The translations under genes were made by a program, and so were the position numbers. Shown piece by piece: positions 36,850 to 39,423 of a DNA stretch of 42,271 nucleotides. The notes under the pieces are model-generated. The model was given only the letters and a program-made list of their open reading frames with translations. It searched no databases and was not told the origin of the DNA. Source of the DNA: a virus (Duplodnaviria; Heunggongvirae; Uroviricota; Caudoviricetes); IMG/VR virus record IMGVR_UViG_2718218308_000003, positions 1 through 42,271 of that record; one strand, given 5' to 3'. How positions within the stretch are numbered: the first letter of the stretch is position 1; each line of letters starts with the position of its first letter.

Positions 36850-37211
36850 TGGCTAGCGAACGCAGTACTGATGTGCAGGCATTTATTGGGGAGCTGGACG
36901 GCGGCGTATTTGAAACCAAAATCGGCGCAGTTCTCAGTGAAGTCGCTTCCGGTGTGATGAACACGAAAACCAAAGGTAAGGTCTCACTCAACCTGGAAAT
37001 CGAACCATTTGATGAGAACCGTGTGAAAATCAAACACAAACTCTCATATGTTCGCCCGACTAACCGCGGGAAAATTTCCGAAGAAGACACCACCGAAACG
37101 CCGATGTATGTCAATCGCGGTGGTCGCCTGACTATTCTGCAGGAAGACCAGGGACAATTACTGACTCTTGCCGGTGAACCTGACGGAAAACTCCGCGCAG
37201 CAGGTCATTAA
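36850..37211 (+). CDS. YfdP-like prophage protein (120 aa)
   Basis: ATG preceded by AGGAGCAGAAAA. Size and order match the yfdPQRST block of CPS-53-type prophages as I recall it. The ORF-track N-terminal extension (36531-36849) is Arg/Cys-rich and unlikely to be coding. Confidence 0.5.
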
Positions 37212-37276
37212 TATCGTTCTTAATTAACCGATTATTTATCTCATCACTGAATATCTTTATATAGTGAGGACTTATT

Positions 37277-38101
37277 ATGTCTCAGAACTTAGACGCAACC
37301 GCAATTAATCAAATCCATGCCCTTATTTCTGCTCAGGGTGTTAATGAAATTATCAGTAAGATTGGTGCCGATGCTGTGGCATTGCCTGAGAATTTCCGCA
37401 TTCATGATCTGGAAAAATTTAATTTAAATCGCTTCCGTTTCCGTGGTGCGCTTTCCACTGCCAGCATCGATGACTTTACCCGTTATTCTAAAGATCTTGC
37501 AGATGAAGGCACCAGCTGCTTTATCGATGCCGATAATATGCGAGCCGTCAGTGTGCTTAACCTGGGTACTATTGATGAACCAGGTCACGCAGATAACACC
37601 GCCACACTCAAACTGAAAAAGACAGCACCGTTCTCTGCTCTGTTGTCTATTAACGGCGAGCGTAACTCCCAGAAGTCACTAGCAGAATGGATTGAAGACT
37701 GGGCAGACTATCTTGTGGGCTTTGATGCTAATGGTGACGCTATTCAGGCAACAAAAGCGGCTGCGGCTGTCCGTAAAATCACGATTGAAGCAAACCAGAC
37801 CGCTGATTTTGAAGATAATGACTTCAGCGGCAAACGCTCCCTGATGGAGTCTGTCGAAGCGAAGACCAAAGACATTATGCCAGTGGCATTTGAATTTAAA
37901 TGCGTTCCGTTTGAAGGTCTGAAAGAACGTCCGTTTAAATTACGCCTCAGTATTATCACTGGCGATCGTCCTGTACTGGTTCTGCGCATTATTCAGCTGG
38001 AGGCGGTGCAGGAAGAAATGGCTAACGAATTTCGTGATCTGCTTGTTGAGAAATTCAAGGACAGCAAAGTAGAAACCTTTATTGGTACTTTCACCGCCTG
38101 A
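37277..38101 (+). CDS. YfdQ-like protein (DUF2303 family)
   Basis: 274 aa, starting [21 protein letters not shown]...; matches YfdQ of CPS-53-type prophages in length and pattern as I recall it. Confidence 0.6.
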
Positions 38102-38228
38102 TTTCATTACTGCAAATGCCCCTGCGGGGGCATTTATGGAAACGTAATTTACTCAATTATCGCCGGATGGTGAGGGATTCTTTTTACCAGAATTCAGCGC
38201 GGTGCAGCGCATATACGTGGAGAACAAA

Positions 38229-38765
38229 ATGTCATTTATTAAAACTTTTTCCGGGAAGCATTTTTATTATGACAGGATAAATAAAGACGACATCGATATT
38301 AACGATATCGCGGTTTCCCTTTCAAATATCTGTCGCTTTGCCGGTCATCTTTCGCACTTCTACAGCGTCGCCCAACATGCGGTTCTTTGCAGCCAGCTGG
38401 TGCCGCAGGAATTTGCTTTTGAAGCGTTAATGCATGATGCAACAGAAGCGTATTGCCAGGACATTCCCGCACCACTGAAACGCCTTCTTCCTGACTATAA
38501 ACAAATGGAAGAAAAAATAGACGCCGTAATCCGTGAGAAATACGGGTTACCCCCAGTTATGAGTACGCCCGTGAAATATGCCGATCTCATCATGCTGGCA
38601 ACCGAACGCCGCGATCTCGGGCTTGATGATGGCTCTTTCTGGCCTGTACTGGAAGGTATCCCGGCAACAGAGATGTTCAACGTGATTCCACTGGCACCGG
38701 GCCATGCCTACGGGATGTTTATGGAACGCTTTAACGAGTTATCGGAGTTACGCAAATGCGCATGA
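38229..38765 (+). CDS. HD-domain phosphohydrolase, YfdR-like (5'-deoxynucleotidase family)
   Basis: H...HD metal-binding motif (LMHDATEAY) and further conserved His/Asp residues; 178 aa from MSFIKT. Confidence 0.65.
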   Translation: MSFIKTFSGKHFYYDRINKDDIDINDIAVSLSNICRFAGHLSHFYSVAQHAVLCSQLVPQEFAFEALMHDATEAYCQDIPAPLKRLLPDYKQMEEKIDAVIREKYGLPPVMSTPVKYADLIMLATERRDLGLDDGSFWPVLEGIPATEMFNVIPLAPGHAYGMFMERFNELSELRKCA

Positions 38766-39118
38766 ATGTTTTCGAAATGGAAGGGTTTCTTCGTGGGAGA
38801 TGTGTACCGCGAGATCTGAAAGTAAATGAAACAGATGCTGAATACCTGGTGCGTAAATTCGATGCGCTTGAAGCTAAATGTGCAGCACAGGAAAACAAAG
38901 TAATACCAGTGTCAACTGAACTGCCACCAGCAAATGAAAGTGTTTTGTTATTCGATGCTAACGGAGAAGGCTGGCTAATTGGCTGGCGTTCTCTCTGGTA
39001 CACCTGGGGACAAAAAGAAACCGGAGAATGGCAGTGGACATTTCAGGTCGGGGACCTTGAAAACGTCAATATCACTCACTGGGCAGTAATGCCAAAAGCA
39101 CCGGAGGCTGGAGCATAA
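38756..39118 (+). CDS. YfdS-like protein (120 aa)
   Basis: Positional and size match in the yfdPQRST-like block; start overlaps the upstream gene. Confidence 0.45.
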   Translation: MRMNVFEMEGFLRGRCVPRDLKVNETDAEYLVRKFDALEAKCAAQENKVIPVSTELPPANESVLLFDANGEGWLIGWRSLWYTWGQKETGEWQWTFQVGDLENVNITHWAVMPKAPEAGA

Positions 39119-39423
39119 TGACCACTTTTACCGACAAAGAACTGATTAAAGAAATTAAAGAGCGTATCAACAGCCTTGACGTGCGAGACGATATTGAGCG
39201 CCGTGCTTATGAAATCGCACTCCTATCTCTGGAAGTAGAACCAGATGAACGCGAAGCTTATGAATTATTCATGGAAAAGCGTTTCGGTGACTTAGTAGAT
39301 CGTCGGAGAGCAAAAAACGGCGATAACGAATACATGGCATGGGATATGACTCTCGGTTGGATCGTCTGGCAGCAACGAGCTGATATCCATTTTTCAACAA
39401 TGTCACAGCAAGAGGTGAAATAA
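39118..39423 (+). CDS. YfdT-like protein (101 aa)
   Basis: Positional and size match; ATGA-type overlap with the upstream stop. Confidence 0.45.
   Translation: MTTFTDKELIKEIKERINSLDVRDDIERRAYEIALLSLEVEPDEREAYELFMEKRFGDLVDRRRAKNGDNEYMAWDMTLGWIVWQQRADIHFSTMSQQEVK

Follow-up and report, generated by a model that had tools for sequence, protein, structure and literature searches.

Published role and identity of the yfdPQRST genes

The yfdQRST genes of Escherichia coli K-12 were isolated by Noguchi and Katayama as a multicopy suppressor of the over-initiation of replication caused by hda-185 (PMC4776307). The minimal set able to suppress over-initiation consists of yfdQ and yfdR together with either yfdS or yfdT; in multicopy these genes inhibit initiation at oriC, yfdP being dispensable for this inhibition, and replication from oriC is also inhibited in vitro in extracts that contain YfdQRST in excess (PMC4776307). 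The K-12 YfdR protein binds domain I of DnaA at Phe46, in competition with DiaA and DnaB, and the authors of that work proposed an ancestral phage role for the genes by analogy with lambda P, naming the homologues in Shigella phage SfV (PMC4776307). The production of YfdQ was furthermore reported to trigger plaques of phage SW1 (bioRxiv 10.1101/413146). Here we describe the corresponding genes, yfdPQRST, in a stretch of 42,271 nucleotides that makes up positions 1 to 42,271 of the IMG/VR virus record IMGVR_UViG_2718218308_000003 (Caudoviricetes) and is referred to below as the window; all coordinates are positions in it.

The five genes follow one another in the order P-Q-R-S-T on the plus strand, between the immunity region and the excisionase and integrase genes (xis/int), as seen from the open reading frames (ORFs) and from the counterparts in phages SfV and SfIV and in K-12. 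The first of them, yfdP (36849-37211), codes for 120 amino acids and begins with an ATG at 36849 preceded by AGGAG 8 nt upstream; yfdQ (37277-38101) codes for a DUF2303 protein of 274 amino acids. The third gene, yfdR (38229-38765; 178 amino acids), encodes an HD-domain phosphohydrolase that is, by its published function in K-12, a DnaA-binding protein (PMC4776307); its ATG start, with GGAG upstream, was chosen over a GTG at 38202. Further downstream lie yfdS (38756-39118; 120 amino acids), composed of an N-terminal module and a C-terminal DUF551, and yfdT (39118-39423; 101 amino acids), which matches phrog_660. The initial annotation of this DNA was right to place five same-strand ORFs in the interval 36850-39423, although its first position falls one base after the yfdP start codon.

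The proteins are 94-99% identical to YfdPQRST of the K-12 prophage CPS-53 (119 of 120 residues for YfdP, 270/274 for YfdQ, 174/178 for YfdR, 115/120 for YfdS and 95/101 for YfdT) and 98-100% identical to orf32-28 of SfV, where YfdP agrees with orf32 in all 120 residues. At the DNA level the identity amounts to 98.9-99% with Shigella phages SfV/SfIV, from position 36445 through int, and to 96.4% with yfdPQRST of CPS-53, and DNA of the block was matched in 3885 of 5426 complete E. coli genomes. These DNA and protein identities, together with the DUF2303 match of YfdQ (E-value 1.8e-92), place the five genes well beyond chance. All five proteins match PHROG families, of which only that of YfdR carries an annotation. 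Judged from these comparisons, the interval carries the known yfdPQRST early genes in nearly identical form and adds nothing new as a block; it belongs among the commonest prophage segments of E. coli, and its K-12 copy has already been studied. Gene order and the near-identity of each protein to its K-12 and SfV counterparts thus bear out the initial identification of a yfdPQRST-like cluster. The accompanying statement that no role had been established is contradicted by the published inhibition of oriC by the K-12 proteins, which are 94-99% identical to those encoded here (PMC4776307).

The genes had also been described as a translationally coupled block of five, which agrees with the distal junctions only. 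Overlaps are found between yfdR and yfdS (10 nt, or ATGA if Met3 is used) and, in the form TAATG, at both the yfdS/yfdT and yfdT/xis junctions, whereas coupling is not borne out between yfdP and yfdQ, which are separated by 65 nt, nor between yfdQ and yfdR, separated by 127 nt. The latter spacer holds a strong GC-rich hairpin (38115-38134, plus strand; core AUGCCCC-UGCG-GGGGCAU, 8 pairs in the predicted fold) with no U-tract after it, which may act as the 3' end or the stabiliser of a yfdPQ transcript. In the K-12 literature yfdPQ is handled as an operon (PMC9181523).

Takeover of host replication as the most likely role

The most likely role of the block, to which we assign a probability of about 0.5, is the takeover of host replication during lytic growth by genes of the early-left operon. 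Upon induction or infection, the operon would be transcribed towards xis/int and its products would shut down initiation on the host chromosome: YfdR would occupy the Phe46 surface of DnaA domain I that is used by DiaA and the DnaB helicase, with YfdQ and either YfdS or YfdT required for the effect in vivo. The host replication proteins would in this way be freed for a phage that has an O-like initiator as its only replication protein, with neither helicase nor loader. The YfdR protein described here is identical to the DnaA-binding YfdR of K-12 in 174 of 178 residues, and DnaA binding is predicted for this variant as well. That such a takeover operates at native protein levels during phage growth, and that it frees host replication proteins, is what we infer by analogy from the K-12 data.

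The proposal fits a phage that has to rely on the helicase of its host. The replication region of the prophage encodes one O-like protein with a winged helix-turn-helix domain (32960-33901), and neither a helicase nor a helicase loader was found in that region. No recombination (Rec) module of the Exo/Bet/Gam, Erf, RecT, Sak or Abc2 type was detected by Pfam and PHROG searches in any ORF between cI and int, RusA in the early-right region being the sole gene of recombination type noted. If it is true that the YfdP-YfdQ pair and YfdR redirect DnaA and DnaB, this would account for the replication of phages of the SfV type, which carry only an O-like initiator and lack both a helicase loader and a recombination module. 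The yfdR-yfdQ-yfdP trio occurs commonly in early-left operons of lambdoid phages, including phages without a Rec module, and a recombinase hidden among these genes is considered unlikely (PMC12315714).

Several observations weigh against takeover. Deletion of yfdQRST gives no replication phenotype, and the authors of the K-12 study conceded that the inhibition could be an artefact of over-expression (PMC4776307). The functional data all come from multicopy expression in K-12 and none from a phage able to grow, and YfdQ, YfdS and YfdT failed to co-purify with either YfdR or DnaA. The most tightly linked gene, yfdP, is unneeded for the effect, and many phages carry the P-Q pair without any HD gene.

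The YfdP-YfdQ pair

Our comparison of related loci revealed that the block is not one evolutionary unit. Ten divergent phages (Xanthomonas CP2 and MET23-P3, Salmonella ST64B, Shigella Ss-VASD, Pseudomonas pAN, three Vibrio phages, Psychrobacter Psymv2 and Acinetobacter Mystique) all carry a YfdP homologue directly upstream of a YfdQ homologue (10/10), while a homologue of YfdR is present in two of them and one of YfdS or YfdT in none. Among 80 genome loci drawn from contigs of one genome per species, P precedes Q in 78, the exceptions being a truncated yfdQ and a contig edge. An HD gene is adjacent in 45 of the 80 loci, lies within 4 kb in 53 and is absent from the rest, where the gene after yfdQ varies (SSB, a DnaQ-like exonuclease, repeat proteins and many singletons). 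A conserved third partner 3' of yfdQ was sought and rejected, as the neighbours other than HD genes are split among numerous small groups unrelated to one another. As far as gene neighbourhoods tell, the block is composed of an ancient obligate P-Q pair, a facultative HD gene and the lineage-specific mosaic genes yfdS and yfdT, which does not agree with the initial view of five genes forming one module: only P-Q is invariant. Since the pair is found in many phages without any HD gene, it must have a function of its own that is independent of YfdR. Apart from this strictly conserved and widespread pair, the block is an ordinary one.

YfdQ matches the DUF2303 family PF10065 with 309.8 bits against a cutoff of 26.6 (E-value 1.8e-92) over profile positions 2-269 of 269, and its family comprises 1827 clusters at 50% identity, nearly all of 265-280 amino acids. 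The residues R52, R54, R56, H104, E140-D141, R166 and R237 are invariant in it. YfdP matches phrog_204 (E-value 1e-49); it had no match in the Pfam set searched, which omitted PF27127, the family precomputed for proteins 99% identical to it. The predicted YfdP structure consists of a long helix and three long strands with a conserved tail modelled as disordered. Neither this model nor that of YfdQ matched an informative known fold, so that structure prediction, an approach proposed in the initial annotation, supplied no functional lead for either protein. Residues 78-105 of YfdP and 171-198 of YfdQ are strongly conserved in their families and modelled with very low confidence (e.g., EEDTTETPMYVNRGG in YfdP), and these two segments may fold only when a partner is bound.

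In profile searches of the PDB, the only match of YfdQ was entry 9o7m, named 'YfdQ Protein' (E-value 2.4e-44), and YfdP matched nothing, hence 9o7m holds no detectable YfdP homologue. The sequence of the entry derives from a CP2-like Xanthomonas phage and is 98.8% identical to the MET23-P3 homologue; its 36 chains represent either crystal packing or an assembly. We found no publication for 9O7M or for a YfdQ structure, and structure libraries released up to April 2026 do not contain the entry. The 9o7m assembly could reveal the function of the YfdQ family. A combined scheme, which we regard as possible and put forward tentatively, is that the obligate P-Q module, whose two genes always adjoin in temperate and other phages of Gammaproteobacteria, may form a large assembly acting on the replication machinery of host or phage, to which YfdR would be an optional DnaA-targeting addition in enterobacterial lineages.

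The leading alternative function for the pair is a part in the DNA metabolism of the phage. In a form that we think unlikely, yfdP-yfdQ would be a self-contained accessory factor of phage DNA replication or recombination, such as a nucleic-acid-binding assembly, and YfdR, YfdS and YfdT would be unrelated passengers. The strict adjacency of the two genes in phages of Enterobacterales, Pseudomonas, Marinobacter, Vibrio, Xanthomonas, Psychrobacter and Acinetobacter is consistent with such a factor, and the neighbours there include genes for SSB, a DnaQ-like exonuclease, Erf or RecT, and exonucleases. The invariant arginines of YfdQ with its conserved H104 and E140-D141, the 36 chains of the Xanthomonas-phage protein in 9o7m and the sensitivity of a yfdQ deletion to methyl methanesulfonate (MMS; cited in PMC4776307) point in the same direction. 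However, a cryptic recombinase is disfavoured by the occurrence of the cluster in phages that also have a complete Rec module (PMC12315714), the genes 3' of yfdQ are heterogeneous, and the 36 chains of 9o7m may reflect crystal packing or an assembly.

YfdR and the nucleotide pool

The HD-domain motif noted in YfdR is confirmed by our analysis, all residues of the metal site being intact (H50, H69-D70, E73, D78 and D119). YfdR aligns over 157 residues to the HD protein Atu1052 (PDB 2gz4) with an E-value of 3e-14 and conservation of the H...HD...D pattern. The assignment to the 5'-deoxynucleotidase (YfbR) family made at the same time was not sustained: YfdR scored 25.2 bits against the YfbR-type Pfam model PF12917, below its cutoff of 25.9, and 20.5 bits against the NCBIfam YfbR equivalog NF003009, far below the cutoff of 122; it remained below cutoff with the HD_3 model as well, and matched the YfbR structure 2paq at an E-value of 0.88 only. 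On these scores, YfdR is a protein of the HD superfamily that is related to YfbR and is not a YfbR equivalog. Earlier work summarised in PMC4776307 found its affinities for nucleotides to be far weaker than YfbR's.

YfdR could nevertheless be mainly an enzyme, a 5'-(deoxy)nucleotidase acting on deoxynucleoside or nucleoside monophosphates during lytic growth, with DnaA binding as a side effect of over-production. We consider this rather improbable. A role of this kind in nucleotide pools would have an analogy in Dmp of phage T5. It agrees with the full set of metal-binding and catalytic HD residues, with the match of YfdR to phrog_318 (E-value 3e-110), annotated as a deoxyribonucleoside 5'-monophosphate phosphatase, and with the name 5'-deoxynucleotidase given to K-12 YfdR by NCBI. 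Genes for YfdR-like HD proteins were found in 333 records of phages with many different hosts, most of them lacking yfdPQ, a pattern that fits a generic enzyme, and a cytidine monophosphate (CMP) phosphatase activity of YfdR is cited in PMC10870394. On the other side stand the deletion of yfdR, which gave no rise in CMP yield (PMC10870394), the scores below the YfbR family thresholds and the suppression of over-initiation, which requires YfdQ and one of YfdS and YfdT as well as YfdR and would be left unexplained by a pure pool effect.

Mosaic structure of yfdS and yfdT

YfdS passes the DUF551 model PF04448 marginally (22.2 bits against a cutoff of 22.0, residues 50-117) and matches phrog_583; no match to YfdT was found in the Pfam set searched. 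Intact yfdS and yfdT together are confined to E. coli/Shigella and occur in 2 of the 80 genome loci, both from E. coli. The mosaicism of the two genes was followed in a separate set of 80 viral-contig loci (L004-L083) whose YfdQ is at least 99% identical to the one described here, a set used for this purpose and not as a sample of diversity. P-Q-R is constant in it and intact yfdS plus yfdT is present in 33 of the 80, the remaining contigs having N-terminal pieces of S or T fused with other sequences. The first 42-59 residues of YfdS and YfdT recur on other C-termini in near-identical prophages, and the PHROG matches are split at the same place. In these alignments YfdS and YfdT behave as two-module proteins that recombine as N- and C-terminal parts. 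DUF551 is known as a portable domain, common to variant V2 of Ea22 (PMC10834534).

Prophage setting and control of the early-left operon

The remainder of the window is a prophage of the SfV/SfIV/SfII type that spans about 3755-40873 (37 kb) between repeats of thrW. Its attachment (att) core, a 48-bp exact direct repeat, lies inside thrW at 40826-40873, with the other copy at 3755-3802; thrW itself, a tRNA-Thr(CGT) gene, occupies 40828-40903 on the minus strand and is followed by proA. The location next to xis/int given in the initial annotation was accurate. The excisionase gene (39423-39773, plus strand; HTH_17 family PF12728, E-value 1.6e-8; phrog_2907 excisionase, E-value 1e-50) follows yfdT with a one-base overlap of its stop codon, and the gene for the tyrosine integrase (PF00589, E-value 2.6e-48) comes next at 39650-40813 on the same strand.

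Upstream, the gene for an S24-type cI repressor (35132-35806) ends in a terminator at 35818-35837, directly after which a pL-like promoter, TTGACA-16-CATAAT, was located on the plus strand at 35846-35873 (11/12 in the promoter scan). Two 17-bp operator-like sites resembling TGTACC-N5-GGTACA overlap this promoter (35853-35869 and 35873-35889, plus strand), and three further sites of this type lie between cI and cro at 35048-35114. The five copies are probably the repressor operators OR1-3 and OL1-2. From the pL-like promoter to int, all genes share one strand. Since the promoter overlaps operator-like sites that have a consensus in common with those between cI and cro, the block makes up, on these sequence features, the distal portion of an early-left (pL) operon under repressor control, in a temperate phage of the SfV/SfIV family that is integrated at thrW.

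The region in front of yfdP is strongly structured (folding z of -7.3 for 36480-36850). It holds an element of the STnc100 family of small RNAs or leaders (36491-36713, plus strand; Rfam RF02076, 49.1 bits against a gathering score of 47, E-value 1.4e-9), which lies upstream of yfdP and is closed by an intrinsic terminator. Another long hairpin, followed by a run of U (36707-36805, plus strand), comes directly before the gene and may, from its fold, likewise be a terminator. STnc100 was rejected as a general leader of yfdP, as it was below the gathering score or absent in all 16 divergent yfdPQ loci checked. Given its absence from these loci and from the K-12 copy, its linkage to yfdP is specific to the SfV-like lineage. 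A second, weak STnc100 match at 38093-38272 (E-value 0.49) was taken as chance. Between the pL-like promoter and STnc100 lie two small convergent, overlapping ORFs, 36051-36257 (plus strand, 68 amino acids) and 36219-36452 (minus strand, 77 amino acids), each of which matches a PHROG without assigned function; the segment is unlike SfV, whose match starts at 36445.

This arrangement bears on the proposal that the block, expressed from the prophage, benefits the lysogen by helping the host to tolerate stress (hydrogen peroxide, acid or DNA damage) and takes no part in lytic growth. In its favour, deletion of CPS-53, yfdQ or yfdS was found to raise the sensitivity to hydrogen peroxide or MMS (cited in PMC4776307 and PMC9181523), the host factor SrsR binds the yfdO/yfdP spacer of K-12 and activates yfdPQ in stationary phase (PMC9181523), and most E. 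coli genomes retain the block. Nonetheless, in this prophage the genes stand behind a pL-like promoter under repressor control and behind two structures that resemble terminators, because of which low expression in the lysogen is expected. The K-12 upstream region with its SrsR boxes is not common to this prophage, the match to K-12 beginning at position 36830, and P-Q also occurs in phages such as CP2 and Mystique, in whose annotation neither a repressor nor an integrase appears close to the two genes. We hold a lysogen benefit to be quite improbable. Both it and the nucleotide-pool role are possible, though less supported than a takeover of host replication. Far less credible still is a function in anti-defence, in which the HD protein would degrade cyclic nucleotides or other immune second messengers as the initial annotation had suggested: what speaks for it is general plausibility, in that counter-defence genes are often found in early-left accessory regions of temperate phages and hydrolysis of nucleotides is within the reach of HD domains, but the nearest relatives of YfdR are phosphatases of monophosphates and an HD protein that is itself uncharacterised, no link between yfdR and defence systems was found in the literature, and membership of a defence system was rejected because none of seven proteins matched a PADLOC defence model at an E-value of 0.01 or better.

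Other features of the prophage

The early-right region (29281-34809, minus strand) encodes CII-like, O-like winged helix-turn-helix, PerC-like, Dam methylase, RusA, KilA-N and DUF968/HNH proteins, as well as a small protein with a LexA DNA-binding domain (31493-31819). The Chi sequence (GCTGGTGG) occurs 13 times in the window, three times on the plus strand and 10 times on the minus strand (e.g., at 38924 inside yfdS), against a chance expectation of about 1.3 for an 8-mer when both strands are counted; 12 lie inside the prophage, 10 of them in one orientation. This richness and orientation fit the published idea that lambdoid phages without Rec are rich in Chi and reliant on RecBCD (PMC12315714).

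Just outside the second att copy (3755-3802) lies a P4-type integrase gene (2376-3590, minus strand; Arm-DNA-bind_3 and Phage_int_M domains), which suggests that thrW harbours a second element in tandem. The far end of the prophage, in the position of gtrABV in SfV, has genes for a DDE_3 (IS630-like) transposase and an Acyl_transf_3 protein (4376-5407 and 5580-6728, both plus strand). The Acyl_transf_3 gene has a low GC content (32-39%) and is possibly an O-antigen acetyltransferase moron.

Comparison with known systems

The cryptic prophage CPS-53 (KplE1) of E. coli K-12 agrees with the prophage described here in all five genes and in their order, and there too an excisionase gene comes next. 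CPS-53 is a remnant at argW, whereas the prophage described here is apparently complete, with 37 kb at thrW and an intact immunity region in front of the genes; the region upstream of the CPS-53 genes is different, being bound by SrsR and devoid of STnc100, and its excisionase is TorI. The serotype-converting Shigella phages SfV and SfIV share the attachment site found here, thrW next to proA. The differences from SfV concern the segment between cI and position 36445 and the far end, which in SfV is gtrABV and here consists of an insertion-sequence-type transposase and an acyltransferase, with no clean gtrABV set.

As regards single proteins, the mosaic Ea22-type proteins of the lambdoid exo-xis region resemble YfdS in that variant V2 carries DUF551 as the C-terminus of YfdS does, although YfdS is without the N-terminal and coiled-coil parts of Ea22. 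YfbR (2paq) and Atu1052 (2gz4) have the HD fold and, in common with YfdR, the pattern H...HD..E....D...D. For the published action on initiation, the functional analogues are those named in PMC4776307, lambda P and SirA of Bacillus subtilis, a phage and a developmental protein that each bind to DnaA and thereby prevent oriC from initiating. SirA contacts the domain I residue equivalent to Phe46, the site bound by K-12 YfdR, whereas lambda P binds domain III of DnaA and doubles as a helicase loader, and the phage described here is without a P-like gene.

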